A DNA stretch of 64,000 bases. It comes from a virus. The stretch is from positions 32,001 to 96,000 of the IMG/VR virus record IMGVR_UViG_3300017917_004503. One strand, 5' to 3'. The notes below the pieces were generated by a model. It saw nothing but the letters and a program-made list of their open reading frames with translations. It searched no databases and was not told the DNA's origin. The stretch's first letter is position 1, and each line of letters opens with the position of its first letter. The position numbers and the translations under genes are program-made. Of this stretch, positions 14,292 to 62,948 are shown piece after piece.

Positions 14292-14299
14292 TAGATTTG
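14292..14299 (+). promoter_or_regulatory. Bacteroidota housekeeping-sigma -7 element TAnnTTTG (early promoter)
   Basis: TAGATTTG 16 nt before the dCMP deaminase ATG; same element at 27262, 33811 and 46667. Confidence 0.55.
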
Positions 14300-14315
14300 T
14301 AAAAATTCTCACAGT

Positions 14316-14921
14316 ATGGAAATCTCACTATCAACCGGAAGCTTTAGTACCTTTCTAGATTTTAACATTTTAGAATCCGGACTCATTGATGTAAACAACT
14401 GGAAGATCTCCCACAACAAAAATGATGGATTCAAAACTATCAAATGGGATAATTCTGAATATCTCAATCCTGAACTATTAACTCTACACGAAAACCAGAA
14501 ATTACTTAGGAATGATTTGATCTATTTAAAAATGGCTTCAATCTGGGGAAAAAATTCACATTGCAAAAGAATGCAAGTCGGGTGTCTTATGGTAAAAGAT
14601 AAATCTATTATATCTGACGGTTATAACGGATCACCCACAGGATTTCCTAATATTTGTGAAGATCAAGATATGACGACTTTACCGTATGTTTTACATGCAG
14701 AGGCCAATGCAATTACTAAATTAGCCAAAAGCACCCAAAGTTCAGATGGATCTACAATATATGTAACACTATCACCCTGTTACGAATGCTCTAAGTTAAT
14801 TATTCAATCAGGAATTAAAAGAGTAGTTTTTAATGAATTATATAGAAAACCTGAGTCTCTTCAATTTCTTTTTGAAGCAGGTATCGAAATTGTAAAAATA
14901 TCTAACCTTAACCAAATTTAA
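14316..14921 (+). CDS. dCMP deaminase
   Basis: SHCKRMQVG, GYNG, HAEANAI, SPCYEC zinc motifs. Confidence 0.93.
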   Translation: MEISLSTGSFSTFLDFNILESGLIDVNNWKISHNKNDGFKTIKWDNSEYLNPELLTLHENQKLLRNDLIYLKMASIWGKNSHCKRMQVGCLMVKDKSIISDGYNGSPTGFPNICEDQDMTTLPYVLHAEANAITKLAKSTQSSDGSTIYVTLSPCYECSKLIIQSGIKRVVFNELYRKPESLQFLFEAGIEIVKISNLNQI

Positions 14922-14927
14922 GTTCAC

Positions 14928-15539
14928 ATGCAGCAATCTAAGGAAACCAACATTCAAAAATTAGCTGAAGATTTTATCAGCAAAAAAACCGACAAATCCT
15001 TTGCGGATCTTTTTAATCGTCTCAAACCCGGGGTTTCCAATCATTGTTTTCTCATTCTCAAGGACACTGAGCTTGCAGAGGATGCCTTTTTAAACACCAT
15101 GTCTAAAGTTTGGCAGAAGATAGATCAGTATAAATTAGAGAGAGGTAATTTTTCTACCTGGTGTTACAATATTGCCCGAAATGAATCTCTTTTACTAATG
15201 AAATCCAGAAAAAAACTGGTTAACCATGAAGAAATAGATTTAGAGTTTCTATCATCTAAAAACACCCTTGGGGAAATAGGCGGAGTTTACACAATAGAGG
15301 ATGATCCAGCATACGCATTCTTCAGTGAGGAGAACACCATCGACTCTGTCTATGAGTCTGTTTTGGACGAGATCAGATCATTACCCGAAACCTATAGAGA
15401 TATTATGATAGACCGTGAGATCCACGGTATGAAATATAAAGATATAGCTGATAAATATGGCATAAAGAAAAGATCGATTGCTACCAGAATCAGAAGAGCT
15501 AGAGGTAGAATAAGAAAGAAGATTGACGAGAAACAATAG
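14928..15539 (+). CDS. ECF-type RNA polymerase sigma factor
   Basis: Region 2 AEDAFLNTMSKVWQKIDQY...FSTWCYNIARN; region 4 LPETYR...GMKYKDIADKYGI...IATRIRRAR. Confidence 0.88.
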   Translation: MQQSKETNIQKLAEDFISKKTDKSFADLFNRLKPGVSNHCFLILKDTELAEDAFLNTMSKVWQKIDQYKLERGNFSTWCYNIARNESLLLMKSRKKLVNHEEIDLEFLSSKNTLGEIGGVYTIEDDPAYAFFSEENTIDSVYESVLDEIRSLPETYRDIMIDREIHGMKYKDIADKYGIKKRSIATRIRRARGRIRKKIDEKQ

Positions 15540-15557
15540 CACAAAAAATCATATAAT
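15530..15557 (+). promoter_or_regulatory. Putative middle promoter GAAAC-N17-TATAAT
   Basis: One of nine GAAAY-N17/18-TAHAAW sites lying just before gene starts. Confidence 0.6.
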
Positions 15558-15562
15558 CTAAT

Positions 15563-16006
15563 ATGTTAGCGATATTCAAATTTATAAAGGTCTGGAAAGA
15601 TGTAGCTATTTATAGGGATTATTTAAAGATAATAAAGAAAGAATCTCTAAATTCCCCTGTTTGGTCTAGAAAAAATCTGAGAAAGGATTGGTTCGGAAGA
15701 ATCTATACCGTCGTGAACTTACCCCCTGAAGTAATTTTTTCGGCTGATTTACCTAAAGAATCCAGACCATCGTTTGTTATGAATGAGATCAAGCCAATTA
15801 ACGACTATATGAAGTCTCTTAATCTCCAGGAGATATTAACTTTAAGTATAGAGGAGGTTGAGAGCACAAACGCTGAGTCTTATTTGGTTGTTTATCAATA
15901 TCTTTTTAGAGAGTTAAACTGGATTTGGATTTTTAGATTTGTGATCGAGTTGATTTTTATAACGACATTAATTATTAAATGGGATTGGATAATAAGCCTC
16001 TTTTAG
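15563..16006 (+). CDS. Hypothetical protein with C-terminal transmembrane segment
   Basis: ORF with hydrophobic C-terminus. Confidence 0.6.
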   Translation: MLAIFKFIKVWKDVAIYRDYLKIIKKESLNSPVWSRKNLRKDWFGRIYTVVNLPPEVIFSADLPKESRPSFVMNEIKPINDYMKSLNLQEILTLSIEEVESTNAESYLVVYQYLFRELNWIWIFRFVIELIFITTLIIKWDWIISLF

Positions 16007-16818
16007 TACCTGGCCATGATCATCTCATGCAAGCTAAATCTGAAATTGAAAAAAAGCTTTTAGTCTTTAAAGATAAAAACTTTACTTTCGATGAAGATTC
16101 TCATACGTATAGGTTTAACGATATTAAATACGACTCTGTTACGACATTTCTTAAGACATTTAAAGTTCCCTTTGATCGTGAATATTGGTCGAGAAAAAAG
16201 GCTGAAGAGAGAGGCGTAGACGTTTCCGTTGTTTTGAATGAATGGCAAGAAAAAGCTAATAATGCGACTAGTTTAGGTACAAGAGTACATAAATACATTG
16301 AAGATTTTTGGAGCGGTGAAAATCCTGAATTTCCCAGTGATGAGAAATTGCTAGAGAGAATTCAGAGCTTTGTTGATATCTATAATAGAAAACTTCATGT
16401 TTTGCTTCCTCTTAAATCAGAGTTGAAAATTTTTTCAAGGAGATGGAGATTGGCTGGAACTATTGATCAGCCTTTTCTTTTTTGGTCTTTTCATCATGAA
16501 AGACCTTTTTTGATTATAGGAGATTGGAAGACTAATGGCGAATTTAGAGACGATTCCCACCCAAAGGGTAGATATAAAAAATTACTCCGACCTTTTTCAC
16601 ACCTTTACGAAAATCACCATAATGAATATTCTATACAGATTAGTCTCTATAGGTTAATTTTAGAAGAAGAAGCAAACATAGAAACTCAGGATGGATTTTT
16701 GTGTCACATAGGCCCAGAAGGACCTGCCAAAATCTATAGAACTAAAGATTTGAGAGAACCACTTAAAGTGTTTCTAGATCACAATAGAACTGAATTTGAT
16801 ATTTTTAATATTGATTAG
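15979..16818 (+). CDS. PD-(D/E)XK exonuclease (phage RecB/Cas4-like); start may be ATG 16027
   Basis: SVTT, GTRVHKYIE, LAGTID, IGDWKT, YSIQISLY motifs. Confidence 0.8.
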   Translation: MGLDNKPLLVPGHDHLMQAKSEIEKKLLVFKDKNFTFDEDSHTYRFNDIKYDSVTTFLKTFKVPFDREYWSRKKAEERGVDVSVVLNEWQEKANNATSLGTRVHKYIEDFWSGENPEFPSDEKLLERIQSFVDIYNRKLHVLLPLKSELKIFSRRWRLAGTIDQPFLFWSFHHERPFLIIGDWKTNGEFRDDSHPKGRYKKLLRPFSHLYENHHNEYSIQISLYRLILEEEANIETQDGFLCHIGPEGPAKIYRTKDLREPLKVFLDHNRTEFDIFNID

Positions 16819-16862
16819 AAACAAAAGTGGATAATTGATCTAAAAAAAAGAAAAAGAAAAAT

Positions 16863-17387
16863 ATGGCAAATAATAAAGCATCCAAGAAAATGACAGAAAC
16901 CGGTCCTGGAGCATCATCAGAGGTAGATTTCCAAACCATGAATCCTGAATCTGATATTATGATAGATCAGGAATTAGTTAAATCACTTGAAAACAAAATC
17001 AAGGATAAAAAAGAGGAAATTAAAAACAAGGTTTATGCTATTACCTTCTCTGAAGATCTTCTACAGAAGTATGAAAAATTCATAAACGAAGAAGCTGAAT
17101 GGAATTCGACCGAGGCTATTGGAGTTAAAGAGATAGCTAAAAATATACAGAAAATAAAGAAGGATGGTGTAAAAAACGGTGTTATTTATCTAGGAGCACT
17201 GGCTTTAGAAGCTACCCATTATTTTATTTCTAAGAGTAAGGGCAAGGGCTTAAAACAAGCCGAAGCTTTCATTGATCTCTATAAACCTTTTGACCAGGCA
17301 CTATCTGATGCTAAGATGGATGCAGCAGAGGTAAAAGACCTAGATAAACAACTTGCTGCAGCAATGCAAGGCATTTCTTTAGGATAA
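16863..17387 (+). CDS. Hypothetical protein
   Basis: ORF preceded by GAAAC-N18-TAAAAA (16818-16846) and followed by a terminator. Confidence 0.6.
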   Translation: MANNKASKKMTETGPGASSEVDFQTMNPESDIMIDQELVKSLENKIKDKKEEIKNKVYAITFSEDLLQKYEKFINEEAEWNSTEAIGVKEIAKNIQKIKKDGVKNGVIYLGALALEATHYFISKSKGKGLKQAEAFIDLYKPFDQALSDAKMDAAEVKDLDKQLAAAMQGISLG

Positions 17388-17406
17388 ATTACACACTAAA
17401 TAAAAC

Positions 17407-17436
17407 AAAACCAGTCATTTTTGATTGGTTTTTTTT
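17407..17436 (+). terminator. Intrinsic terminator
   Basis: AAAACCAGTCA-TTTT-TGATTGGTTTT stem-loop plus T tract. Confidence 0.7.
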
Positions 17437-17476
17437 GTGACTTTTAAATTTGATATATAAATGAAGTAAATTAATT

Positions 17477-17785
17477 ATGAAACAGCTACAAAAAATCAAA
17501 GAAAATTCTTGGGCAATAACTTTAGTTTTAAGTGTTTTGCTTTTCTTTAAACAATGCGGAGTTAGTAGGGATATTGATAGAATACAGAAGGATCTGAAAG
17601 TAATCTCTAAAAATGTTGATTCAACACAAAATCAACAGATGACTAAAGATGAGGTAAAACAAACTATGAATGAAGTTATGTTTGATTTCCTTATTTATGA
17701 AGACGATTTCGATAAAGGTAAATCTTCTCTATCAGATATTAAATCAAAAATTAAATCGTCGGTTGATGGAAAAGGCCAAGAATAA
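17477..17785 (+). CDS. Small membrane/lipoprotein-like late protein
   Basis: N-terminal hydrophobic segment ending FFKQC, then coiled coil; GATATATA at 17452. Confidence 0.55.
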   Translation: MKQLQKIKENSWAITLVLSVLLFFKQCGVSRDIDRIQKDLKVISKNVDSTQNQQMTKDEVKQTMNEVMFDFLIYEDDFDKGKSSLSDIKSKIKSSVDGKGQE

Positions 17786-18449: not shown

Positions 18450-18455
18450 GAAAAA

Positions 18456-19127: not shown

Positions 19128-19130
19128 AAA

Positions 19131-19613: not shown

Positions 19614-19699
19614 ACAAAAAATAAGATTTAGGTTAAATATATAGTAGAAAGTTTTCGTTCCCTATTGGGATATATAATAAGAATAAAAAAAACAAGACC

Positions 19700-22255
19700 A
19701 TGGATTTTATAAACCAAGTGAAAAAATTAAAAGAGCTAACTAAATCACCTGAAGTTAGACAAATCTGCGAGAAATATCTTAGCGGATCAAATGAGGTCTC
19801 AAAGGAACAGGTAGAGGCCGTTATTAATGAACAAGCTACTCCTGATGTTAAGAATCATTGGGATTCGATTGCTCAAGAGCAATTACAGGCTTCTAAAAAA
19901 GCCGCTCAAGCTCTTATGGAATCTTGGGGAGGTTTCGGAAGAGGATCTTCGAATTCTGGTTCTTATAAACCTTCGGTTAAGCAAGAAGAAAACACTTCAG
20001 CTCTTTTAGAGAATCTTAATACTATATCGATTGAAGATAACAACGCTAAATCTTTTGTTGAAGCTCAGAACTTAAAAAATCTTGGGATCTTAGAATCTAT
20101 TAACAAGATTAAAGGACTTTCTATTTCTGAATATCCTAAAGTTAAAATAGTTTGTGAGCAATACTCTAACTTAATCGTTAACAAAAACATTCCTGAGTTT
20201 TCTTTAATCAATGGATTTATCTCTGAAATGGAGTCTTTTAAATGGGACGTATCTATATTACCAGTCATAGAAAATCTAAAAGAAAAATCTTCTAGATTTT
20301 CAAGAGAAATCGAAGTTGCTAAAGTTATCGAATCTATAAAAACTAGTGGATCAGCTTCTTTTTATTCTGACTTGTCAGAATCGCTAAATTCTTGGTTAAT
20401 CTCTGAAAATAAATCCTCTGGATTATTAGCAAAAGAAATTAGTAAATGGTCTTTCAATCCTGTCGTTAGAAATCTAATCAATTTCTTAAATGCTAATGAA
20501 GCAAGTAACACATCTAAGCTGGAGTTACCTGTGAATGCTCAAAACGAGTCAAGGGTTTCTAGAATTTTTTCACCTATTTTAATCGAAGGTGAGACTACAT
20601 ATTTCACCGCAGGAAAGAGTATCTTCCAAATTAAAGATAGCTCGATAAAAAGATTAAATGAAAAAGAGATCGCTTCAGTTCCAGGAGAGTATATTTCTTT
20701 GGTTAACGCTTGTTTAAAACCTTATGTTCAAATTTCAGAAAGCGGAGTTAAAATATCTCTAGGTAAGAAATCTGTTAGCATTATCGAAGAGAAAGAAGAT
20801 GTTTCAGTTTATCTTGGTAAATCTAGATTAAACTTTAGATCAGTTGCAGAACTTGCTAAAATACTTGGTCTTGAATCTAGCAGCCATTTCGGAGTAAATG
20901 AGTCACAAGTAGTTGGAGATATTCTTAACATCTATACTAACTTCAGAAATATAGTAGAGCTTGATTTCGCTAAAAACATTTCGTCTAATATCTACGAAGG
21001 TGTTTCGGTTAATCTTATTAAATGGGATAATAATATCTTCTTACAGAGAATAAACGATGCAATGAGAGAAAATTCTGTTTATAAAGTTAATGGATCTCAA
21101 GCCGTGAAAATGGTTAAAGATTTCTTAAGATATGACATATCAGAGGGCTTAACTGAATTCTTGGATGGAGAACAGAAGATCAAGTCTATTATGGTAAATG
21201 ATAGAACTAAGGTCCTTGAAAACATCTCTCGTGTTGAATCAGAAGTTAACAAACTAGAGACATTGATGGAAAGCAATCCTCTTTATGCTGCTTCAAAGGA
21301 AATAAAATCAGCTCATGGATTATTAACCAGTGAACTTTCAGTTCTTAGAGAAAAATGGAATCAGATTAATCTTGAGATCTCTAAGATAGAATCAGAACCT
21401 AATATAGTATCAGATCTTTTTGAAGATCAAAAATTCAATATTGGCGATCTAGTTAAAATTAAAGAATCAGGTGAAACCGGAAAGATTATTTCTGTTGATG
21501 GAAGTTCTGGCAGATATACAATCCTTTTAGACAATGGAAGAACTTCGGATTACATGGTTAATGATATAGTTGATCTTGAAGAAGCATTAGCTCAAGCAGC
21601 AGAAAGAAACGAAGAAAAAGCTGGTGAAGATAGATCAGAGGAAGAAGGATCAGAAGAAATGAAGGAGTCAAACAACCTCAATAAATCTAATCTTTCAATC
21701 GAAGAACAGAAAAAACTTTTAAAAACTTTTTCAACAGGTCATTCTTTTTCTAAAGCTCCAGAAGACGAGAACGAAGAAATAGAAATGGAACTTGATAGCT
21801 TACATGGATACAATGTAACTATGAATGAAAAGAATCAAACAACAGCTAAAGCACCAGGCGATAGTAAATTAGAATCAGGTAAAGATGCTAATAAAAAGAA
21901 TCTAGCAACTGCACCAGGATCTCATAAAAAAGAAAAGGCAAAGGCTGAAGGTGAAGATTTATTAAGCGATAATGCACCTGAAACTAAAAAGAAAACCGAA
22001 TTTGATGGTAAAGATGCTGAAGGATCTAAATATGAAATCGGATATAACATCAGAGAAGGTAAAGCCGAAGACGAGGGTAATATGGTAGAAGCTCCTGAAA
22101 AGGGGAAAAATGCTAAAGAAACAACTGCTAAGGGTAACTTAGAAAAGATGATGAATTTGGCCGAGGCTCCAGGTAAAGAAGGTAATATTGATTTCGAAGT
22201 AAACGATGAAATGGGATATAACATTCAAGAATCCGACGAAGTAAAAAAAAACTAA
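19700..22255 (+). CDS. Large putative prohead core/internal protein with KOW/SH3-like domain and repeated acidic C-terminal cassettes
   Basis: GATATATA at 19669; many [ILM]-x-E sites; FNIGDLVKIKESGETGKIISVD; ends in slippery A9 run. Confidence 0.55.
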   Translation: MDFINQVKKLKELTKSPEVRQICEKYLSGSNEVSKEQVEAVINEQATPDVKNHWDSIAQEQLQASKKAAQALMESWGGFGRGSSNSGSYKPSVKQEENTSALLENLNTISIEDNNAKSFVEAQNLKNLGILESINKIKGLSISEYPKVKIVCEQYSNLIVNKNIPEFSLINGFISEMESFKWDVSILPVIENLKEKSSRFSREIEVAKVIESIKTSGSASFYSDLSESLNSWLISENKSSGLLAKEISKWSFNPVVRNLINFLNANEASNTSKLELPVNAQNESRVSRIFSPILIEGETTYFTAGKSIFQIKDSSIKRLNEKEIASVPGEYISLVNACLKPYVQISESGVKISLGKKSVSIIEEKEDVSVYLGKSRLNFRSVAELAKILGLESSSHFGVNESQVVGDILNIYTNFRNIVELDFAKNISSNIYEGVSVNLIKWDNNIFLQRINDAMRENSVYKVNGSQAVKMVKDFLRYDISEGLTEFLDGEQKIKSIMVNDRTKVLENISRVESEVNKLETLMESNPLYAASKEIKSAHGLLTSELSVLREKWNQINLEISKIESEPNIVSDLFEDQKFNIGDLVKIKESGETGKIISVDGSSGRYTILLDNGRTSDYMVNDIVDLEEALAQAAERNEEKAGEDRSEEEGSEEMKESNNLNKSNLSIEEQKKLLKTFSTGHSFSKAPEDENEEIEMELDSLHGYNVTMNEKNQTTAKAPGDSKLESGKDANKKNLATAPGSHKKEKAKAEGEDLLSDNAPETKKKTEFDGKDAEGSKYEIGYNIREGKAEDEGNMVEAPEKGKNAKETTAKGNLEKMMNLAEAPGKEGNIDFEVNDEMGYNIQESDEVKKN

Positions 22256-22410: not shown

Positions 22411-22419
22411 TTTTAACAT

Positions 22420-22452
22420 GAAAAGAACGTAAAACCTACGTTCTTTTCTTTT
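22420..22452 (+). terminator. Intrinsic terminator
   Basis: GAAAAGAACGTA-AAACC-TACGTTCTTTTC hairpin followed by TTTT. Confidence 0.75.
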
Positions 22453-22481
22453 GAAATAAAATCCACCTTTAGTAGTATAAT
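22453..22481 (+). promoter_or_regulatory. Putative middle promoter GAAAT-N18-TATAAT driving gp55
   Basis: Matches the recurrent bipartite motif; 22 nt before ATG 22504. Confidence 0.6.
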
Positions 22482-22503
22482 TATTTAAAATTATTGAATT
22501 TTA

Positions 22504-22863: not shown

Positions 22864-22865
22864 AG

Positions 22866-23351: not shown

Positions 23352-23947
23352 TTCCATATTCACAGGAGGTGCTTCAGTATAAGAATTCGTATAAAAATTT
23401 ATCTGAGGTTGTTAGTAAAACTAACTCTAAATTTTCAGAAAAGTATTATAGAGATGCTAAACCCGAGAAACCCTTCTCTCTACCGTTTATACCTGGTCAA
23501 ATTTATAGCTTTTTCTATAAGACAACAAGCAAAATAACTCCGGAAAGAACTTTTATAAACAGAAATCCTGTTGTTCTTTGTACTGAATCTTTTCAAAACA
23601 AAGAAGGTGAGCTTATACTCAAGGGTATAGATTTAATAACAGTTCCTCCTGATTTGAGAATGATTATTCTTGAAAGAATTTATAACAGTTTCTATTATAA
23701 TATAAACCCAGGTTCCTACGAGAACCCAAAACCTATATTGCTTAATCACGAAACATTAAAGAAAATACTTACAGACACTGGATACTCGAGTTCATTATTT
23801 GGTTTTAGAACCAAATTTTTTGGTGAAATCTTTACCGTCGATGTTAAAGATTGGATCATGTTACCCTATCTAACAGAATCACTCATAGAAGGCACGAATT
23901 TACAAGGGATATATACGACATATAAATCGAAATTAATCCGAGAATAA
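23348..23947 (+). CDS. DNA end protector (gp2-like)
   Basis: PGQIYSFFY, P.VL, G.DL...PP..R, DW...LP; follows gp4 as in T4-like genomes. Confidence 0.6.
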   Translation: MIPYSQEVLQYKNSYKNLSEVVSKTNSKFSEKYYRDAKPEKPFSLPFIPGQIYSFFYKTTSKITPERTFINRNPVVLCTESFQNKEGELILKGIDLITVPPDLRMIILERIYNSFYYNINPGSYENPKPILLNHETLKKILTDTGYSSSLFGFRTKFFGEIFTVDVKDWIMLPYLTESLIEGTNLQGIYTTYKSKLIRE

Positions 23948-23962
23948 ACACTAAAAAGAAGA

Positions 23963-25561
23963 ATGGCCGGTTTTGTAAATAATAACGATCCCCAACAGTC
24001 ACCAGTAATTACCAGAATTAGAGATTCTGTGAGAAAGCTGAGCACTTTCGGGATGAAGTATGATGATATGGTCATACGAAACTCTCAGGCAGTTGGTGTT
24101 ACTGAAGCAGCATTCTTAAACAAGAATAAATCCAATGTTGAGGATGAAAGTATGCTATGGACTCTTGCGAAGCAAGATATTACATCAAAGCAGTATGTTT
24201 CATATTTCGATAAAGATTATAAGGGTAAAAGAGATTACCTAAGAAAATTCTCTCTTAATCCTGAAATAGAATGGGTTTTAGACACTGTGTGTGATGAGAC
24301 TATTTCTTACGATCCTGCCAATTTTTTTGCTTATCCTGATTTTTTAGACCTGTCAGACATCAACGAAAAACTAAAGGATTCTCTTTATGAGACGTATCGA
24401 AAACTATATGATGTTTGGGGATTCTCTGATGATATAACTGCATGGCAGTATTTTAGACAATTCCTCGTTGATGGATTTCTTTGTTTCGAAATTATCTATG
24501 ATAATGAGGGAAAGAATATAATAGGATTTAAAGAATTAGATCCTGTTACTATAGTACCTAGCGTAGAAAAGCAAGTAGACGGAAGTTTTTTAAATACCTG
24601 GACCCAATTTCCACAGGATCCAAGAAGAAGACGTGTTCTATATGATCCCCAGATTATTTATATCTCGTATGCTAAGGGCAATTCAATTTCCAGAATAAGT
24701 TATATCGAAAGATTAATTCGTCCTTATAATATCCTTAGAATCATCGAATACACCAGAATTATCTGGTCTGTTATGAATGCTTCTTTTAAATTGAAGATGA
24801 CTGTTCCTATTGGTACTAAATCCCAACAAAAAGGAATGCAAACTCTAGGAGAATTAATGAGCATCTATAAGGAAGACGTTCAATTGAATGATGAAAGTGG
24901 TGAATTGTTTATAGACGGAAGACCTAAAATTCAGTTTTACAAGAATTACCTAATGCCTTCTGGAGTAAACGGAACGCCAACAATTGAACCTTTAACAACA
25001 GAGGGTCCAAACTTAAATGACCCTGCTCCTTTATCATATTTCTTTGATAAGTTTGTACAAGAATCTAAGGTACCTCCATCAAGATTCACTGGTCCAGATG
25101 GAACTAATGCTTCGACCTACACAAATGCTGCTGAGGGATTGGATAAAGAGGAGATTAGATTTGCTAAATTTGTAGAAAGACTTAGATCTATATTCCAGGA
25201 GATATTAACTAAACCTCTGTGGATACAAATGGCTAAAAAATATCCTGAGTTAGAGAAGGACTTTATGTTTAAGAGCCAGCTAGGTCTCGATTATTTTTCA
25301 GATAACCCGTTTAAAATAAACCAAGAAATTGAAGTAATTAATAAAAGAAAAGAATCAGTAACAGCTATGTCAGGTTTACTTGATGATGAGGATAAACCCT
25401 TTTTCTCAGTTCCTTTCCTAATTGAAAATTTCTTAGGAATTTCTAGACAGGATATTGTAGCAAATAAAGAAGCCAAAGAAAGGAAAGAGAAGGAGAAAAA
25501 GAAAGATAGTAAAAAAGATGAAGGCGAAAAAGAGGGTGGAGAGGAAAGCATAACTTTATAA
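23963..25561 (+). CDS. Portal protein (gp20-like), copy 1
   Basis: PEIEWVLDTVCDE, FRQFLVDG, LDP, SYIERLIRPYNILRIIE, VPPSRF, EEIRFAKFVERLRSIF; GATATATA at 23908. Confidence 0.9.
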   Translation: MAGFVNNNDPQQSPVITRIRDSVRKLSTFGMKYDDMVIRNSQAVGVTEAAFLNKNKSNVEDESMLWTLAKQDITSKQYVSYFDKDYKGKRDYLRKFSLNPEIEWVLDTVCDETISYDPANFFAYPDFLDLSDINEKLKDSLYETYRKLYDVWGFSDDITAWQYFRQFLVDGFLCFEIIYDNEGKNIIGFKELDPVTIVPSVEKQVDGSFLNTWTQFPQDPRRRRVLYDPQIIYISYAKGNSISRISYIERLIRPYNILRIIEYTRIIWSVMNASFKLKMTVPIGTKSQQKGMQTLGELMSIYKEDVQLNDESGELFIDGRPKIQFYKNYLMPSGVNGTPTIEPLTTEGPNLNDPAPLSYFFDKFVQESKVPPSRFTGPDGTNASTYTNAAEGLDKEEIRFAKFVERLRSIFQEILTKPLWIQMAKKYPELEKDFMFKSQLGLDYFSDNPFKINQEIEVINKRKESVTAMSGLLDDEDKPFFSVPFLIENFLGISRQDIVANKEAKERKEKEKKKDSKKDEGEKEGGEESITL

Positions 25562-25562: not shown

Positions 25563-27215
25563 ATGGCAGGATTTTTAGATCTATTTAAACCAAACGAATC
25601 TGCTTTAGGTAACATTCTTAGAAACCTAGGCAAAGTCTCCAAATTTGGGATGGAGTACGATGATATGGTTGTTCGTAATTCTCAAGCAATAGGTAAAAGC
25701 GAAGGATCCTTTTTTAATCAGCAGGGGACTGGGTTTACTCAGGATGATGCTTTTTATTGGACTCTTTCTTATCAGGATACGAAGGTAAGAAAATACATAG
25801 CTTATTTTGATAAGGATTATATTGAAAAAAGAAACTTTCTGAGAAAATTTTCACTCAATGGTGAGATAGAATTTATTTTAGATACTATCACTGACGAATG
25901 TATAACCTATGACGATAGAAATTTTTTCGCAAATCCTTCTTTCATAAATCTTGATTTGAAAGAGAAAATTCTAAATAAAATAACTTCACATTACAATCGC
26001 CTTTATAACATTTTTGGATTTCAGAATTCTATTTTGGCTTGGCAATTATTTAGACAGTTTCTTATTGATGGATTTTTAGCTTTTGAAATAATATACGACA
26101 ACAAAGGAAAAGAAATTATTGGATTTAAAGAATTGGATGCAACCTCTTTGCAGCCAGCAGTAGAAAGAGTTGGTGAAAATGAGTACAAACAATTTTGGAT
26201 TCAATACCCAAAGAATCCTCAGATGACTAGAAAACTCACTAATGAACAGGTTATCTATATTTCTTATGCCAAGGGTAATAGTATTTCCAGAGTTAGCTAT
26301 ATAGAAAGATTAGTAAGATCATATAATATTTTGAGAATCATGGAGAATTCCAGGGTAATCTGGAATGTTATGAATGCTTCTTATAGATTAAAGTTTGTAA
26401 TACCAACTGGAAGCCAGTCTCCTCAAAAAGCTATGCAAACATTAGGACAGTTAATGTCAAATTATAAAGAGGAGATAAGCATAAATGATGCTTCTGGTGA
26501 ATTGACTGTAAACGGAAGACCTAAAGTCCAATTTTACAAAAATTATTTATTTCCTGAAATGAATGGACAATCTCCACAAATTTCATCACTAAATCCTTCC
26601 GGTCCTGATTTTAACGTTATGGAAAATGTTGTTTACTTCTATAATAAGTTAAAAATGGACTCTAAACTTCCTTATGCTAGATTTGCAGCTAGAAGTGCAG
26701 GTCCTTCTAATTATAAGGTAAGTATTGATGCTCTTGAAAGAGATGAGATACGTTTTGAAAAGTTTCTCCGTAGATTGAGATCTATATTTCAAGAAATTTT
26801 GGTTAAACCTCTTTATATACAAATGTGTTTAGATTTTCCTGAATTATCTAGAGATAGAAGCTTTAAGGTTAATCTTGGATTAGATTTTCACAGAGAAAGT
26901 GAATTTGAAGAAATGGTTCAGCTTTCGAATTACACTAAAAGAAGTGAATTTATCAAAGGACTCTATGAATTTAAAATTAAGGCTGGTGATGAGGAAAAGC
27001 CATATTTTGATAATGACTTTCTAATTCAGAGATTTCTAGGTCTGACTCCAGATCAGATTAAAATGAATGAAGAATATAAGAAGAAAGAGGAAAAACAAGC
27101 ACCACAAGCTAAACCTGCCAGTGGAGAAGGCGAATCACCAGAAGGAGAAACGTCAACCCCTCCAGAGGGAGAAGCTCCAGAGGGAGAAGCTCCGGAACCA
27201 GAAGTAACACTTTAA
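25563..27215 (+). CDS. Portal protein (gp20-like), copy 2
   Basis: Same motif set (FRQFLIDG, SYIERLVRSYNILRIME, RDEIRFEKFLRRLRSIF); full length. Confidence 0.9.
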   Translation: MAGFLDLFKPNESALGNILRNLGKVSKFGMEYDDMVVRNSQAIGKSEGSFFNQQGTGFTQDDAFYWTLSYQDTKVRKYIAYFDKDYIEKRNFLRKFSLNGEIEFILDTITDECITYDDRNFFANPSFINLDLKEKILNKITSHYNRLYNIFGFQNSILAWQLFRQFLIDGFLAFEIIYDNKGKEIIGFKELDATSLQPAVERVGENEYKQFWIQYPKNPQMTRKLTNEQVIYISYAKGNSISRVSYIERLVRSYNILRIMENSRVIWNVMNASYRLKFVIPTGSQSPQKAMQTLGQLMSNYKEEISINDASGELTVNGRPKVQFYKNYLFPEMNGQSPQISSLNPSGPDFNVMENVVYFYNKLKMDSKLPYARFAARSAGPSNYKVSIDALERDEIRFEKFLRRLRSIFQEILVKPLYIQMCLDFPELSRDRSFKVNLGLDFHRESEFEEMVQLSNYTKRSEFIKGLYEFKIKAGDEEKPYFDNDFLIQRFLGLTPDQIKMNEEYKKKEEKQAPQAKPASGEGESPEGETSTPPEGEAPEGEAPEPEVTL

Positions 27216-27288
27216 TTTTTTATGTCCATTTAATCAATTTTTTTTTCGCGAAAAATTCATTTACTTTTGCTTAAAATAAATTGAAAAA

Positions 27289-28638: not shown

Positions 28639-28673
28639 GAAACAAGAATTAAAAATTCTACTAAAAATCCAAT

Positions 28674-30152: not shown

Positions 30153-30213
30153 TGATAAGTATTGAATTTAGAAATTTTTTTCAATAGAAGCACTATAAAA
30201 TTGAAATACGATT

Positions 30214-32848: not shown

Positions 32849-32893
32849 ACAGAAACTTAAAATAAACTTCCATGTATAATATAGAAAATTTCA

Positions 32894-33790
32894 ATGTTAT
32901 TCGGAAGTAATCCACCACAACTAACTTATATAGGACCGCATAGTGAAGATTCTTCTTGCACCAGAAATATTAATTCATATAGCGATTTACTAAAATTGGT
33001 TTACAATAATCTTTTGTTAAACCAAGAAATAGACATTGTAAACACCTGTATAGATTTTTCACTACTAACTTTTACCCAAAATTTTTTTGATGAATTTATT
33101 GATGAAGAGTCAGAAAATACGTCTCTAATTATTGATCAAATAAATTCACATGTTGCTAAAAATGGATCCAAAATATTCTTTTATTTACCTAAGGATCATT
33201 TTCTTGGAACACAGTTAGACACTGTTGAAAAAACTACAACTTCTCTTATAATAAAATTATCGGAGATACTGGAAACTATAGGAGTGAATTACCCTTCTAT
33301 TTTAATTAGAATAGGATCTGCTTATGGAAACAGAAAAAATACCATGAGTGTTTTTTGTGAAAGAGCTAATCTTTTAGGTAAATCTACACTATCTAGATTG
33401 TGTGTAATGAATGACGATAAACCTAGTTTATTTTCAGTAACAGATTTACTTTCTGGCGTTCACTATAAAACCGGGATTCCTATTTGTTTTAGGATACTAC
33501 CGCACCAATTTAATGATGGTGGGCTATCTATCAGAGAAGCAATGTTTCTTTCATGTTCTACGTGGAAATCTGAACATAAGCCTGTTTATATCCATTCCGA
33601 ATCCGTCTCTGTTGATGATTTTGGGTTTCCTACCGATCCCAAATGCTCAGATTATCTCAAACACAGAATACCTACTTTTGGCCTAGATCTCGATGTTATT
33701 GTAGATTCACCAGCTAAAGAAGATTCTTGTTTAAAATATAGAATGGATTGTAAATCACTTCCTCCTATAGTTATTAGCAAAAAACCATAA
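32894..33790 (+). CDS. uvsE: UvsE (UV damage endonuclease)-like protein with substituted metal ligands
   Basis: GSAYG, RL.V.NDDK.S.FSV.DL, GIPI.F, GGLS..EA, STW, SES, SDY, TFGLD.DV, AKE...LKYR scaffold of UvsE. Confidence 0.7.
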   Translation: MLFGSNPPQLTYIGPHSEDSSCTRNINSYSDLLKLVYNNLLLNQEIDIVNTCIDFSLLTFTQNFFDEFIDEESENTSLIIDQINSHVAKNGSKIFFYLPKDHFLGTQLDTVEKTTTSLIIKLSEILETIGVNYPSILIRIGSAYGNRKNTMSVFCERANLLGKSTLSRLCVMNDDKPSLFSVTDLLSGVHYKTGIPICFRILPHQFNDGGLSIREAMFLSCSTWKSEHKPVYIHSESVSVDDFGFPTDPKCSDYLKHRIPTFGLDLDVIVDSPAKEDSCLKYRMDCKSLPPIVISKKP

Positions 33791-33827
33791 TTTATCTCGA
33801 ATAAAGTATTTATATTTGTGAAAAATT

Positions 33828-34559: not shown

Positions 34560-34599
34560 AAAAGCTTTTTCTTGATATATAAGAGAAAAAGCTTTTTTT
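34560..34599 (+). terminator. Terminator hairpin whose loop contains a late promoter
   Basis: AAAAGCTTTTTCT-TGATATATAAG-AGAAAAAGCTTTT plus T tract. Confidence 0.65.
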
Positions 34600-37956: not shown

Positions 37957-38012
37957 TCAAAAAAATTCAAATTTTAATTGATATATAAGAAATAATAAAA
38001 AGTAGTATAAAA

Positions 38013-46667: not shown

Positions 46668-46708
46668 ATATTTGACCCTGGAAACAATCTAATTTGATTC
46701 CATATAAA
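46667..46708 (+). promoter_or_regulatory. Tandem early (TATATTTG) and middle (GAAAC-N17-TATAAA) promoters
   Basis: Both motifs lie between the terminator and ATG 46713. Confidence 0.55.
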
Positions 46709-48697: not shown

Positions 48698-48746
48698 TAA
48701 TAAGATGTAAACTAGGATTTGGATATATAAAAGAAAAATTTATTCG

Positions 48747-50544: not shown

Positions 50545-50610
50545 AATAAGGTATTATCCCGTTCGATTGTATATATTTTTAGTGATATATAAATCAAAAA
50601 ATTCTCTATA

Positions 50611-51937: not shown

Positions 51938-51980
51938 TAATCAAGCGAAACATCTTCAACTATTGGTAGTACAATTTTTT

Positions 51981-52250
51981 ATGGAATTACCTGAAGATTT
52001 TGTTCCCGATTATAATCAGATACTCAAACTTAGTAAGTCTAAAGGATTTAGTGTTCTTGAGTTTTCTAGACATCCTGATATGGACTTGGATAATATCATA
52101 GAATTTTGGAGGTATGATAAAAGAAAATCGTCTAAAGGTGAATCCTCTTGGTTAACCGAGAGTGATTTTAAATCACATCTTCCAAAATATTTAGAATCTT
52201 TTCCCTTGGTGGAAATAGAAACAAAAAACCAAAAAACAAATAAAAAGTAA
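51981..52250 (+). CDS. Hypothetical protein
   Basis: ATG 51981 downstream of GAAAC-N18-TACAAT (51947-51975). Confidence 0.5.
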   Translation: MELPEDFVPDYNQILKLSKSKGFSVLEFSRHPDMDLDNIIEFWRYDKRKSSKGESSWLTESDFKSHLPKYLESFPLVEIETKNQKTNKK

Positions 52251-55976: not shown

Positions 55977-55979
55977 TTT

Positions 55980-56570: not shown

Positions 56571-56590
56571 TAACATCTAATTCTGAATAA

Positions 56591-58150: not shown

Positions 58151-58185
58151 TTTCAGGATAAATATTAAAAATAATCACCAAGAAA

Positions 58186-60477
58186 TTGCTTGCAACAGAT
58201 CAACAAAGAAGTTTATTCCTCAAGGGATTTAAACTTTCAAACCAAGGAAAATATGAAGATCCAACTTATCTAGGATTTAAGATAGTTTTCGATTTCGGAG
58301 TTTTACCTGTGAGAGCTGACGATGGGTTAGCTCCAAGTCCTCTTTTTAGGATAGGAAGTTATGAGGATCAACAATTTTTTCCTTTAAATCCATTTGCTCA
58401 ACCACAGTATTCGTATAAGACTGGTCCTAATATAGCTTATTATTCCGCTGCTGAATACCTCAGACAAAGAGAGCAAAACTTTCCCCGTGGTGGAAAGAGG
58501 GCAGATATGTTGATTCAGTTTCGTAATTTATTAAACGATCTTGTTTCAAATTCACCATGGTTTTTACAATCTATCGATGGTTTGGACCAATTGGAAAAAG
58601 TAGAGCGTCCAGGATTTCCCACATTGGATATCGGTGGTTTTGATCCACAGAGAACAGGTAATAAGGTATTAACTTTCAACACTTTAGAGTCTCTGAATTT
58701 AAGAATGACTGCTTTAGCTGATCTTTATAATCAGGCTACTTTTGATTATGATAATATGAGGGAACTAGTCCCTAGGAATCTCCGAAGATTTACGATGTTT
58801 ATCTTCGTTCAAGAAATTAGAAATTTCTTTAAAACTTCTAGATTGATTGGTTCTTCTGCAGCTTTAACTTCACTCAACAATCTATCTGATCTACTGGGAG
58901 CAGGTAATAATCCTGGCAGTAATCTCGGAGCAGCTACTAACATAGCGAATCAGTTTGGACAGGAATTTGGTCAAGCTAATTCTGGTGGTGGAGGACCATT
59001 ATCTTCTTTTGTAGGTAACGTATTTAATAATTCTGGTGTTGATAATGACTATGCTATATTCACAAATCAGCAGGATCAAAGCGGGATTAAGCCAATGCTA
59101 ATCTATGAATGCAGAAATTGTGAATTTGATTTTAGCGACAGTACACCAATACCTAGCTCTATAAACGTTGGTGTTGATACAGCTACACCTGTTGGACAGA
59201 GCTTTAGAATTTTGGTTGGAAAGGTTAGAAAGAAGAGTCAATATCCAAATATCAGGCAAGATGGAAAGCCCTTAATTCTTGCTGATAGCTGGGATTCTTC
59301 TCGCTCGTCTGTTCAAAAAAATCCACAAGACACGAATGACATCTTATCTATTGGCGAAGAGCTTTTAACTAACTTTGTAAGTAATTCACTAAACGATCTT
59401 ATTAACGAAGGTATAAATAATTATGTTCTACCTGCGATTGCAGGAGCAGATAGATTAGCCTTAGGTAATGTTTATAGTTTAGATCCTGGACAGATCTTAT
59501 CAGATCTATCCTTTAACAATGCACAGAATTTTCTAAATCAATTGGGTAACGTCTCTGAAATTTCACTTCCTAATCCACAGACTTTAGGACAAGGTGGACC
59601 TCCAGAGAGGGTTTATATTAAACCAACTGGTGACGTTTATGCACAGGTTCCAGGAAGAGATCTTGGTGTTCCTGAAAGAGTTTACGTTAAGCCTAGTGGA
59701 GATTCCTATCCTGATGTACCAGGAAGGGATTTAGGGGTTCCTGGAAGAGTTTATAATACTCCATCTGGTGATGCCTATCCTGATGTTCCTGGTAAGGATC
59801 TCGGTGTTCCAGATAGAGTTTACACTCCACCTTCAGGTGATGCCTATCCTGATGTTCCAGGAAGAGATCTTGGTGTTCCTGATAGAGTTTATCCTTTACC
59901 AACTGGTGATGTCTATCCTGATGTTCCAGGAAGAGACCTCGGTGTTCCAGATAGAGTATATCCACCATCAACCGGAGATGTTTACACCGACGTACCTGGT
60001 AGAGATTTAGGTGTTCCTGATAGGGTTTACGGTAAGCCAGGAGGAGATGTTTATTCGAATGTTCCTGGTACAGATTTAGGTGTTCCTGATAGAAATTACA
60101 ATAAACCTCAGGGAAAGGTTTATCCTGATTCCCAGCCTTCTCCTAAATTAGGTGAATCGCAGGTTTATCCTGATTTTATTCCATCATCTCCTATCGATAT
60201 TTCGTCTCAAAGAGTTTATACAGATACTCCAAAAGTTAGTTACAACGGAGAACTGAGAGATGAATCTAATACTTTCTCGAGTAATCCTGGAAGAGTCTAT
60301 CCTGTCAACAAACCTTTTTCTGGTCAGAGTAGAGGAGATATCGGAAAGGCTTATCCTGAGACTACAGGAGATTTCATAATCGAAAAACCTTTAAATCTAG
60401 GAAATCTTAAACCAGAAGACAAATATAATATTAGTCTGGGACAAAACAATCCAGATCCTAATCAATTTGAAGATTAA
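58186..60477 (+). CDS. Baseplate/tail protein (possibly gp54-like) with C-terminal Pro/Gly repeat
   Basis: GATAAATA at 58157; EDPTYLGF, PWFLQSIDGL, NLRRFTM; within baseplate block. Confidence 0.5.
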   Translation: MLATDQQRSLFLKGFKLSNQGKYEDPTYLGFKIVFDFGVLPVRADDGLAPSPLFRIGSYEDQQFFPLNPFAQPQYSYKTGPNIAYYSAAEYLRQREQNFPRGGKRADMLIQFRNLLNDLVSNSPWFLQSIDGLDQLEKVERPGFPTLDIGGFDPQRTGNKVLTFNTLESLNLRMTALADLYNQATFDYDNMRELVPRNLRRFTMFIFVQEIRNFFKTSRLIGSSAALTSLNNLSDLLGAGNNPGSNLGAATNIANQFGQEFGQANSGGGGPLSSFVGNVFNNSGVDNDYAIFTNQQDQSGIKPMLIYECRNCEFDFSDSTPIPSSINVGVDTATPVGQSFRILVGKVRKKSQYPNIRQDGKPLILADSWDSSRSSVQKNPQDTNDILSIGEELLTNFVSNSLNDLINEGINNYVLPAIAGADRLALGNVYSLDPGQILSDLSFNNAQNFLNQLGNVSEISLPNPQTLGQGGPPERVYIKPTGDVYAQVPGRDLGVPERVYVKPSGDSYPDVPGRDLGVPGRVYNTPSGDAYPDVPGKDLGVPDRVYTPPSGDAYPDVPGRDLGVPDRVYPLPTGDVYPDVPGRDLGVPDRVYPPSTGDVYTDVPGRDLGVPDRVYGKPGGDVYSNVPGTDLGVPDRNYNKPQGKVYPDSQPSPKLGESQVYPDFIPSSPIDISSQRVYTDTPKVSYNGELRDESNTFSSNPGRVYPVNKPFSGQSRGDIGKAYPETTGDFIIEKPLNLGNLKPEDKYNISLGQNNPDPNQFED
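59626..60108 (+). repeat. 7 x 69-bp (23-aa) tandem repeat xGDVYPDVPGRDLGVPDRVYxxP
   Basis: Counted directly in the translation. Confidence 0.9.
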
Positions 60478-60479
60478 TT

Positions 60480-61181
60480 ATGCCGAGTGAAAGAGTCTAT
60501 TTGGGTCAAATCGTAGATAATAAAGATCCCTTATACCAGGGAAGAGCAAGGGTAAATGTTTTTGGTTTTTTCGATGGAATACCGACTGAAGATCTACCTT
60601 GGGCAGAGCAGATAGCTGGACTTTCCTTTGATGGAGGATTCGGAGGCGGAAATATCTCTATTCCTAGAATAGGTACTGTTGTTGCTGTTCATTTTGAGGA
60701 GAATAATTACTATAAAATGAATTATCACTACATTAAAGAGATCTCTCCTTCGTTATTAGAAGAGCTTAAACAAGAAAATTCATACGAGGGTACTCAATCA
60801 ATAGTCTATGACACCGAAGCTCAGCCAGGCACACTTAAAATGATTTATACGAGGAAAAATGGTTTGGTCTTTCAATTAGGTGATGCAACAATTCAACTTG
60901 ATACACAGAATGCTGGAACTGATAAAGAAAAACTCAGAATCAAGATAAAGATGAATGATGATGAGATTAGAATGGAGAAGAATGCGGGTAAGCAAAAAGT
61001 AATTATCAAGTCTGGAAACATAGAGCTAGGTGAAGAAGCTGTTGAAAAAATTATTTTAGGTAGCACCTTTTTGGATTTCTTTAATAAGCATACACACCCA
61101 ACCGGGGTTGGACCATCTGGTGTTCCCGTGATACCTATGATAGATCAAGTTCATTTAAGTCAAGTTTCAAAAACTAAATAA
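60480..61181 (+). CDS. Baseplate central spike (gp5/gpV-like OB fold)
   Basis: VDNKDPLYQGRARV, LPWA, IPRIGTVVAVHF, C-terminal HTH metal-binding motif FNKHTHP. Confidence 0.85.
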   Translation: MPSERVYLGQIVDNKDPLYQGRARVNVFGFFDGIPTEDLPWAEQIAGLSFDGGFGGGNISIPRIGTVVAVHFEENNYYKMNYHYIKEISPSLLEELKQENSYEGTQSIVYDTEAQPGTLKMIYTRKNGLVFQLGDATIQLDTQNAGTDKEKLRIKIKMNDDEIRMEKNAGKQKVIIKSGNIELGEEAVEKIILGSTFLDFFNKHTHPTGVGPSGVPVIPMIDQVHLSQVSKTK

Positions 61182-61182
61182 C

Positions 61183-62889
61183 ATGCCAGCTGATTGGGTA
61201 TCTTTTATAACAAATGTTTCTAATAAACTTGACGGTCAATCCATTCAAGCTTCTTATGATTCTGCGGGTTCAGATGTTGATGATTTTGCAACTTATCTGG
61301 CACAACAGTATACAAATGCTACAGTCGGTAAAGCACAATCCCCTTACGGCAATACACATGTGAAGGGTAACGAATCCATTTTGATAGCAGGATTTTCCGA
61401 GGCTTTTAAGAAACTAGAATCCGAAAGATCCCCTACCTTTGAAGAAAAATCCAAAGATCCTAACTATAAAGATTTAAAGGAAGAACCAACTGAGCAACAA
61501 CTTGAATCGGCTAGATCGAAATTTGATCTAGATTTTTTAGCTTGGGCTGAAGAAAATGGTTCAAACATACCGGATTTCATATATTCTCAATTTTTTAGTC
61601 AATATCCTGGATTTCCCAATACAGAGGAGCAAAGGGTTCTTGAATTAGCTAGAAGAATTATTAATCAATTTGACGGAACTTCAGATTATTTACAATGGAT
61701 ATACACTTTAAAGATACAGAATGATGAGTATAAAACTATATCTAGCAAAGTTTATGATAAAATTTTAGAATTAACCAAGGGACTAGGGTCTTCTGAGATA
61801 AAAGTCGGGGATGAAGTTCAAGGACTTTCTCTTTATCCTTTGAATCCAAACGGAACTGAAAATAGAAATTCTCCAAATAAGGGCGGTGAATTGATAAGAG
61901 GTAAGGTTTCATCTATTAATAAAATTAAAATACCTCTCTTATCAGGATCTAATATTTATTCAGTGACAGTAAATTCAAATGGTAAAAACATAGAAAGAAT
62001 TTTAGTTCCTGATACTATTCAAAAGAAAATTAATGTCTCTGATTTTCGTAATGTTAGAAACGTGAATTTATCTAAAAAAATCTTACAAGAAGACCATGTA
62101 TCTGATCCTAGCAGAATACCTAATTATTTGACATCTAAATTCATTACCCGTTTCACATACGATCCAAACAATGATAAAAATCTTTTTTATAGGATAATTA
62201 GAGCTACGCTAAATTTAGTTAATTATGATGGGGTTCAAAATTCCATAAACCAAAATCTATCTCCGAATAATGTACTTTATAGTGGATCTATTACTAAATT
62301 TTTAGACGGAGATTTTACTAATGCACAAATACAAGGCGCTAATATTCTAAGTACTCAGTTCCTTAACAATTCTAGAAATTATAAAGATTCTCTTAGCGTA
62401 AATAATTTTCTAGTATCACTTTCCTCTAAAAAATCCACGTCATATTCAGTTGAAGCCTCGAGATTTCTCCAGCTTAAAAGATCTTACATTGATTATTTAG
62501 TTCAAGAATCTAAAATACAGGATGAATCTGTCAATACTGAAGATCCATATTACAAAATGGCTGATAGTGTTATAAAATACTGGATTAGTTGTTTACAACA
62601 ACCTCTTTCTTCGTCTCCTCCTGTACCACCTTGTACAATATTACCGCCATCAAACGGTGTTTATGTTGGTGTATATTATGGATCTATAAAAAAACTAGGA
62701 GACAGTTTACGCCGTGCATTTAACGATGGCAAAAGTTTCAAGACTGGTAAAACTGGAAAAATAGTTGCAAGTTCTTTGGCTTCATCTTTCCAAAAGCATT
62801 TACTAGAACTAAAATTTATTTATAATGGTGGTATCCCTACAACAGGTGGACCTGTACCAATGTCAGGATTTGTTTCGTTAGTTTTTTAA
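61183..62889 (+). CDS. Hypothetical baseplate-associated protein
   Basis: Follows spike gene; no recognisable catalytic motif. Confidence 0.5.
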   Translation: MPADWVSFITNVSNKLDGQSIQASYDSAGSDVDDFATYLAQQYTNATVGKAQSPYGNTHVKGNESILIAGFSEAFKKLESERSPTFEEKSKDPNYKDLKEEPTEQQLESARSKFDLDFLAWAEENGSNIPDFIYSQFFSQYPGFPNTEEQRVLELARRIINQFDGTSDYLQWIYTLKIQNDEYKTISSKVYDKILELTKGLGSSEIKVGDEVQGLSLYPLNPNGTENRNSPNKGGELIRGKVSSINKIKIPLLSGSNIYSVTVNSNGKNIERILVPDTIQKKINVSDFRNVRNVNLSKKILQEDHVSDPSRIPNYLTSKFITRFTYDPNNDKNLFYRIIRATLNLVNYDGVQNSINQNLSPNNVLYSGSITKFLDGDFTNAQIQGANILSTQFLNNSRNYKDSLSVNNFLVSLSSKKSTSYSVEASRFLQLKRSYIDYLVQESKIQDESVNTEDPYYKMADSVIKYWISCLQQPLSSSPPVPPCTILPPSNGVYVGVYYGSIKKLGDSLRRAFNDGKSFKTGKTGKIVASSLASSFQKHLLELKFIYNGGIPTTGGPVPMSGFVSLVF

Positions 62890-62948
62890 AAACCGGAACT
62901 TATTGGTGGATATATACTAAGATTGTTTAACTTCTTAATAAAAAAAAT

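Follow-up and report, generated by a model that had tools for sequence, protein, structure and literature searches.

The window analysed here, a 64,000-nucleotide stretch covering bases 32001-96000 of a single IMG/VR virus record (IMGVR_UViG_3300017917_004503; 151,373 bp, classed as linear), carries genes for two phage sigma factors, one of the extracytoplasmic function (ECF) type and one resembling the late sigma factor gp55 of phage T4, together with three kinds of promoter-like motif that we call early (E), middle (M) and late (L). The completeness of the record according to CheckV is 52%, that is, about half a genome; its + strand holds 127 of the 132 open reading frames (ORFs), and non-coding DNA amounts to 2.8%. 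Scans with PHROG, Pfam and NCBIfam models identified a T4-type gene set. Among the structural genes are those for the large terminase, sheath, two tube paralogs, a hub-like protein, two portal paralogs, the prohead protease, the major capsid protein and gp2-like and gp4-like proteins, and the replication and recombination genes comprise a clamp loader, ligase, exonucleases, UvsX, UvsY, a gp32-like SSB, a DnaB-like helicase, primase and SbcCD. Megablast against deposited phages found no near relatives of the record. Judged by terminase and gp55, the nearest deposited phages are huge uncultured phages, Prevotella Lak phages, phage PAU, Tenacibaculum PTm1/PTm5 and Chryseobacterium MA9V; the host of PAU has since been reclassified as Sphingobacterium (PMC4621102). 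A Shine-Dalgarno-like core was found in just 7 of the 132 genes, and the upstream regions are G-poor and contain 45-60% A. Because of these few Shine-Dalgarno cores, the A-rich leaders and the Bacteroidota hosts of the nearest phages, it is very likely that the record derives from an uncultured T4-related jumbo phage with a host in Bacteroidota.

The ECF-type sigma gene begins 6 nt past the stop codon of a dCMP deaminase gene, so the two genes probably form an operon. Two domains were recognized in the sigma, PF04542 at residues 28-94 and PF08281 at residues 143-194, and no other domain, neither sigma-3 nor region 1.1. The protein passes the sigma70-ECF model TIGR02937 (70.3 bits for a cut-off of 42.9) and misses the cut-offs of all the specific subfamilies; its top matches are Bacteroidota ECF families, the best of them Sig70_bacteroi1 (78 for a cut-off of 126), and its best PDB match is SigW of B. 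subtilis (5wuq, 3.5e-10). As for the gp55-like protein, residues 4-109 align with residues 9-126 of the 185 of T4 gp55, the remainder being without counterpart. Since the alignment stops at residue 126, the protein lacks the C-terminal third of its T4 counterpart, which is anchored to the gp45 sliding clamp by its C-terminal tail. Its Pfam match is Sigma70_r2 only, and weak, with no sigma-4. A T4-type clamp (PF02916) was not found in the record or in five complete relatives, though a divergent clamp could escape this search; a clamp loader is present.

The L class consists of the single box GATATATA; all its 24 copies in the 151-kb record are on the + strand, none being found on the - strand, and 17 of them lie in non-coding DNA. 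Genome-wide motif discovery, which the earlier note on this DNA had proposed as a check, returned it as the top de novo intergenic 8-mer (p 2e-19). Copies that precede genes end 12-33 nt before the start codon, and no upstream element conserved together with the box was found, which leaves a class without a -35. The targets include the tail sheath gene, the prohead protease gene followed by that of the capsid, and the gene of a head-closure-like protein; the first portal gene combines its M motif with an L motif 48 nt upstream, and the tail tube gene has only the variant GATAAATA. The earlier note had written this motif as GATAWATA; the strict box bears out its placement before structural genes, but the degenerate form adds little (10 further matches on the + strand, 2 of them intergenic). 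The absence of a -35 from L and of sigma-4 from the gp55-like protein makes the two a natural pair, and we consider it likely that this protein reads the L promoters.

The M class is bipartite, GAAAY-N17/18-TAHAAW, and was found 24 times on the + strand and 7 times on the - strand of the record, against 9.4 expected from dinucleotide shuffling; 13 of the copies are located in non-coding DNA. Because A-rich leaders produce TAHAAW easily, the spacing is the decisive control for this class. When spacers of 8 to 27 nt were scanned, N=18 gave 18 matches in the record versus about 5 at each other spacing and, within 40 nt of a start codon, 10 versus about 1 at other spacings. The same N=18 peak appears in the relative G001 (31 versus about 12, with 18 near starts). 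In agreement with the earlier note, which had placed this motif before gp55 and replication genes, it stands in the window upstream of the genes for the gp55-like protein, the clamp loader, an exonuclease and a thymidylate kinase-like protein, of the gene that follows the ECF sigma, and of several genes whose function is not known. Beyond the window, a strict M motif lies 153 nt before UvsX, with the variant GAAAC-N18-TATGAT near the start of this gene, and a relaxed form, GGAAC-N17-TAAAAA, precedes the gp32-like SSB gene. At M sites, both in the record and before the gp55-like gene of the relatives, GAAAY is never preceded by TTG. Around one third of the M promoters end just 5-7 nt before an ATG (15530, 23929, 28639, 46681 and 51947, with 9 nt at 52218), which, with a transcription start at the usual distance, would yield leaderless or near-leaderless mRNAs. 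One small gene, called from TTG 51963, probably starts instead at ATG 51981. The gene behind the ECF sigma (15563-16006) is preceded by an M promoter of its own, which overlaps the 3' end of the sigma gene. The C-terminus of its 147-aa product is strongly hydrophobic, and family and Atlas searches with this protein gave no family match and no informative hit; from its position it is a possible candidate for an anti-sigma or feedback factor. The 174-aa protein behind another M promoter likewise has no family and no informative Atlas hit.

The E class was found before the deaminase/ECF sigma operon, the ligase gene and an exonuclease gene. At these three sites of the window the box TAnnTTTG is part of an extended form, in which a T-run and YCG precede it by N11. 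The TAGATTTG box of the operon, at 14292-14299, stops 17 nt short of the deaminase ATG, in line with the TAnnTTTG that the earlier note had read before the ECF sigma operon, and the TATATTTG box of the exonuclease promoter lies at 33811. G001 has dozens of copies of the extended form (consensus ATTTTTTTATCCCG-N11-TAnnTTTG), concentrated among small ORFs in a region that the record lacks. The textbook promoter of the Bacteroidota primary sigma combines a -33 TTTG with a -7 TAnnTTTG. The E sites have no TTTG about 19 nt upstream of the box; instead they carry the T-run, which overlaps the -33 position, and (A)TCCCG 11 nt upstream. This T-run plus (A)TCCCG, near-invariant and exactly 11 nt before TAnnTTTG (14268-14280, 27238-27250 and many G001 sites), could be an UP-like element or the binding site of a shut-off factor. 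The exact extended pattern is also found in 107 bacterial contigs, as a single copy per genome, and 51 of 80 among the matches listed are Bacteroidota, which argues that the -7 box is host-type and also speaks for a host in Bacteroidota. Other occurrences of TAnnTTTG in the window, at 12703, 17445 and 46667 and two inside coding sequence, were set aside as chance, not being kept in the G001 orthologs. Canonical TTGACA/TATAAT promoters showed no enrichment (84 on both strands, compared with 79 +/- 9 in shuffles). The sigma genes and the predicted promoters of the window are listed in Table 1.

Table 1. Sigma genes, the deaminase gene and predicted promoters of the three classes in the window (window coordinates; G001, complete relative)
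Feature	Position	Strand	Motif or match	Remarks
dCMP deaminase, first gene of the probable early operon	14316..14921	+	PF00383 4.5e-24; phrog_174 3.9e-52	
Phage ECF-type sigma, 203 aa	14928..15539	+	PF04542 (Sigma70_r2), PF08281 (Sigma70_r4_2), TIGR02937	
gp55-like putative late sigma, 119 aa	22504..22863	+	phrog_234 4.1e-16; T4 gp55 PDB 7d7c 4e-4	sigma-2-like only
E, before deaminase/sigma operon	14268..14299	+	T-run 14268-14273, CTTCCCG 14274-14280, N11, TAGATTTG 14292-14299	
E, before ATP-dependent DNA ligase (27289)	27238..27269	+	T-run, CGCG, N11, TACTTTTG	box at 27262; E in G001 ortholog
E, before 3'-5' exonuclease / polymerase exonuclease subunit (33828)	33788..33818	+	AATTTATCTCG, N11, TATATTTG	E in G001 ortholog
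M, overlapping sigma gene 3' end	15530..15557	+	GAAAC-N17-TATAAT	6 nt before ATG 15563 (147-aa protein); M in G001 ortholog
M, before 174-aa protein gene (16863)	16818..16846	+		conserved in G001
M, after terminator hairpin, before gp55-like gene	22453..22481	+	GAAAT-N18-TATAAT	ends 23 nt before the gene
M, before first portal gene	23929..23957	+		ends 6 nt upstream; L motif at 23908-23915; M and L both in G001 ortholog
M, before clamp loader gene (28674)	28639..28667	+		ends 7 nt upstream; conserved in G001
M, before exonuclease gene (30214)	30171..30199	+		motif scan
M, before 298-aa gene (32894)	32852..32880	+		weak UvsE-like match of the gene; conserved in G001
M, before thymidylate kinase-like gene (46713)	46681..46708	+		ends 5 nt upstream; not conserved in G001 ortholog
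M, before gene at 51981	51947..51975	+	GAAAC-N18-TACAAT	6 nt before ATG 51981; M in G001 ortholog
M, before 218-aa gene (52255)	52218..52246	+		conserved in G001
L, before gene of 829-aa protein	1509..1516	+	GATATATA	head-closure-like domain
L, before tail sheath gene	6696..6703	+	GATATATA	
L, before 102-aa gene (17477)	17452..17459	+	GATATATA	
L, before gene of 851-aa protein	19669..19676	+	GATATATA	
L, before 269-aa gene	34574..34581	+	GATATATA	phrog_36119
L, before prohead protease gene	37980..37987	+	GATATATA	major capsid gene next
L, before 222-aa gene	48722..48729	+	GATATATA	
L, before 146-aa gene	50584..50591	+	GATATATA	
L, before gene at 62949	62909..62916	+	GATATATA	called S1-like in an earlier note; not annotated here

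Conservation of the motifs was followed in relatives from IMG/VR, where at least 196 of the ECF sigma and at least 266 of the gp55-like protein were found; the best 80 of each were kept (identity of 65-92% and 81-94%, respectively) and the upstream regions reduced to distinct sequences, 48 for the ECF operon and 41 for the gp55-like gene. Upstream of the deaminase/ECF operon, TAnnTTTG is present in 44 of the 48 (background 5.1% per 100 nt) and the extended E form in 38 (background 0.6% per 100 nt), with neither M nor L in any of them. Before the gp55-like gene the strict M motif stands in 31 of the 41 (background 2.5%), near-variants such as TAAAAC in 6 more, and E or L in none. Spacers and flanks differ freely among these relatives while the motifs stay, and by this comparison the motifs before the ECF operon and the gp55-like gene are phylogenetic footprints. 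The synteny of the record with G001 (348,582 bp, CheckV 100%) spans only about 157 kb; the class of promoter agrees between orthologs in 8 of 11 cases for M (p 7e-7), in 26 of 32 for L (p 1e-10; 17 of 18 for strict GATATATA) and in 3 of 3 for extended E. The upstream regions of the gp55-like genes of Chryseobacterium phage MA9V-1, PAU and Lak-B5 were also considered and showed no clear M; their start codons are uncertain and they do not discriminate between readers. Thus the three separable promoter classes described in the earlier note are borne out by motif statistics and by conservation in dozens of relatives. It seems very improbable that one or more of the motifs are signals of translation initiation or RNA processing, or by-products of the A-rich leaders, instead of promoters. 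The composition of the leaders lets TAHAAW arise easily near start codons and several M sites lie only 5-9 nt before an ATG, but composition alone does not explain a peak at exactly 18 nt in the record and in G001. Besides, GATATATA has a strand bias of 24:0, sites often lie behind terminators, and the motifs are kept while their flanks diverge, the classes sorting by gene function.

Motif classes, positions, conservation and the class before each sigma gene are read directly from the DNA; what we infer from them is which protein reads a class, in which order the classes act in time and what a third sigma, discussed below, does. We are highly confident that the three promoter classes and their wiring to the sigma genes are real. 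The best explanation for them is probably a three-class feed-forward sigma relay with the ECF sigma as middle reader and the gp55-like protein as late reader. At the start of such a relay, the unmodified host RNA polymerase with its primary sigma, through the -7 box, would most likely read the E promoters and express the deaminase/ECF sigma operon, the ligase and the exonuclease, and in the complete relatives also small early genes and an RpoD-like sigma. The phage ECF sigma, as the most likely reader, would then fire the M promoters of the replication, recombination and nucleotide genes and that of the gp55-like gene, whose product would in turn read the L promoters and drive the virion genes. 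Being bipartite, M needs a sigma with a sigma-4 domain, and for this role we lean towards the ECF sigma. Its sigma-2 and whole sigma-4 helix-turn-helix are nearly invariant among six genomes that all keep GAAAY, and its DNA-reading domains, the ECF-type look of the -35 and the variable -35 helix of the RpoD-like sigma favour it as M reader; the -35 of SigW is TGAAAC, and promoters of ECF sigmas carry a -35 that contains AAC.

Several observations weigh against this relay. A third phage sigma is encoded by each of the five complete relatives; it is RpoD/RpoS-like, 298-305 aa long and has a sigma-4 domain. In one of them (G004) its gene stands behind an M-like GAAAC-N18-TATAGA and not behind E. 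The M -10 (TAnAAT) is canonical for primary-type sigmas and unusual for ECF sigmas. Positive autoregulation from their own type of promoter is typical of ECF sigmas, and here M stands upstream of the ECF operon in none of the 48 distinct relatives and E in 44, so that the sigma would not be autoregulated. As regards the early class, bare TAnnTTTG shows no genome-wide enrichment (80 on the + and 81 on the - strand of the record, about 87 expected), and the upstream half of the E promoter, unlike the textbook -33 TTTG, is on these sequences a peculiarity of the phage. Finally, in the Rak2-like jumbo phage CBB a class with -35 TGAAACG and -10 TATA precedes the DNA-synthesis genes and the gp55-like gene (PMC5259590), and we found in CBB a single sigma-r2 gene (339 aa, RpoD-like) and detected no r4_2 gene.

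The five complete relatives have genomes of 290-430 kb, two of them with terminal repeats, and each carries three sigma-r2 genes, of the ECF, gp55 and RpoD-like types. The RpoD-like protein aligns end to end with SigA/RpoS (PDB 1e-41) and scores 177 bits with the RpoS model, below its cut-off. In G001 its gene (70285-71199) belongs to the early region and not to the part that is syntenic with the record, and very probably the phage studied here too encodes such a sigma beyond the fragment in the record. In this sense, the cascade called complete in the earlier note is not so, as the record holds only part of the genome and the third sigma lies outside the syntenic part. As a side observation, an AAGGAGG Shine-Dalgarno-like sequence precedes the RpoD-like gene of G001, although about 95% of the genes of the record analysed here have none.

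Because the RpoD-like sigma also has sigma-4, the M promoters could be read by either phage sigma, and the assignment of M to the ECF sigma, which rests partly on elimination, is now ambiguous. The same three classes and relay could therefore work with an early RpoD-like sigma reading M and an ECF sigma that has a smaller regulon or a host-directed role, a reading that we regard as rather unlikely. It draws on the presence of this sigma in every complete relative, with an extended E promoter before its gene in 4 of the 5, on the -10 and the 17-18 nt spacing of M, on the lack of autoregulation of the ECF gene, and on a well conserved region 2, in which the DNA-melting positions are still occupied by an aromatic residue and a tryptophan. 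The CBB and fENko-Kae01 genomes, each with one RpoD-like sigma and no ECF-type gene detected, point the same way, as CBB still has the TGAAACG/TATA class (PMC5259590). However, the overall identity of the RpoD-like sigma is 43-46% and its region 4.2 varies (ERIRQ, ESIRQ, ETVRS, ECVRI, ENIRV) across genomes that all keep GAAAY, whereas sigma-4 of the ECF protein is near-invariant. The absence of TTG before GAAAY also speaks against an RpoD-like reader, and no fourth motif is left for the ECF sigma, since neither inspection by eye nor k-mer enrichment found a fourth class in the leftover upstream regions of G001. The parallel with CBB may be convergent because Rak2-like phages are distant from this lineage, whose nearest deposited relatives are Lak, PAU and PTm1. 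The signals that did appear in those leftover regions are imperfect early promoters, a coding tandem repeat and hairpin-like GGGAACG...CGTTCCC repeats; the latter recur between small early genes at around 250-272 kb of the G001 reverse complement.

Returning to the ECF sigma as middle reader, a fuller programme with four sigmas is a tentative possibility. In it, host sigma-A would fire the E promoters and the phage primary-like sigma would then take over or sustain this class, with its -10 region conserved and its -35 helix free to vary. The ECF sigma, without autoregulation or recognisable anti-sigma, would be the middle factor and a minimal, clamp-independent gp55 the late one, and about a third of the M promoters would yield leaderless mRNAs, in a host without initiation of the Shine-Dalgarno type.

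Phage T4 expresses its genes with sigma-70 (early), MotA/AsiA (middle) and gp55/gp33/gp45 acting on TATAAATA (late). The phage described here shares with it the core genes (gp55-like, clamp loader, UvsX/UvsY, gp32-like, gp41-like, gp46/47-like, portal, protease, capsid, sheath and tube), single-element AT-rich late promoters and a gp55-like gene under middle control. It differs in the late box, GATATATA instead of TATAAATA, in a middle class that has a true -35 and not a MotA box, in having no detected MotA/AsiA or PF02916 clamp, and in a gp55-like protein without the C-terminal third. Homologues of AsiA and MotA (PF09010, PF09114) were not found in the record or in the five complete relatives. 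To this extent the earlier suggestion that an ECF sigma replaces MotA/AsiA in middle activation is partly supported, but who reads M is ambiguous, the RpoD-like sigma being also a candidate. A host sigma-A holoenzyme helped by a phage activator or a sigma-remodelling factor, analogous to MotA/AsiA, might read M while the phage sigmas act elsewhere. The M -10 shares T1, A2 and T/A at position 6 with the host-type TAnnTT box, and many phage proteins lack annotation, which leaves room for an activator. We consider this explanation improbable, as no such homologue was found, two early-expressed phage sigmas with sigma-4 are at hand, and the M -35 is short and sigma-like, with a fixed 18-nt spacing.

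The closest parallel in organization is the transcription scheme proposed in silico for the Rak2-like jumbo phages CBB and GAP32 by Buttimer et al. in 2017 (PMC5259590). These are also jumbo T4-related myoviruses, with host-type early promoters that have a T/A-rich upstream element (PMC5259590) and cluster ahead of small early genes and of the gene for a phage sigma that has regions 2-4, a second class of TGAAAC-type -35 and TATA-type -10 before DNA-synthesis and gp55-like genes, and a third, AT-rich single-element class (ATAAATA in CBB) before structural genes. In CBB, no homologue of gp33 or gp45 was found (PMC5259590). The hosts are Enterobacteria there and probably Bacteroidota here, where the early class is TAnnTTTG and the late box GATATATA; the present lineage adds the ECF-type sigma, and terminase and gp55 show distant kinship only. 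In Bacillus phage SPO1 (sigma-A, then gp28, then gp33/gp34) an early phage sigma likewise leads to a late sigma and to the late genes, a cascade reported as proven at the bench (PMC13401047). SPO1 belongs to an unrelated lineage with non-orthologous sigmas, and the cascade here is deduced from sequence. Within the T4 superfamily, an RpoE-type ECF sigma occurs together with gp55, and without gp33, in Sinorhizobium phage PhiM9 and Rhizobium phage P10VF (PMC4621102), which thus constitute a precedent for the combination of an ECF sigma with gp55. No promoter classes were mapped in these phages of Alphaproteobacteria, and their ECF sigma was proposed as a possible late factor (PMC4621102), not as a middle one.

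Among the virion genes of the window, two full-length portal paralogs stand in tandem (23963-25561 and 25563-27215), both matching phrog_213 (3e-54 and 1.8e-63). Two tail-tube paralogs are also adjacent (10123-10677 and 10695-11270, both phrog_32623), with a further tube-like gene at 135266-135814 of the genome. The 851-aa protein behind one of the late promoters (19700-22255) has no PHROG family, and among deposited phages it matches only Lak megaphages and a single further huge phage (22-26% identity).

A similar in-silico scheme is already known from Rak2-like phages, and the cascade proposed here is a variant on known phage sigma cascades. If the relay is true, a widespread lineage of uncultured Bacteroidota jumbo phages would time its infection by passing host RNA polymerase through two or three phage sigmas and not through T4-style sigma remodelling, and this would be the first ECF-type sigma with the role of middle factor among phages of the T4 superfamily. 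Furthermore, it would yield compact orthogonal pairs of promoter and sigma for Bacteroidota, where genetic tools are scarce.

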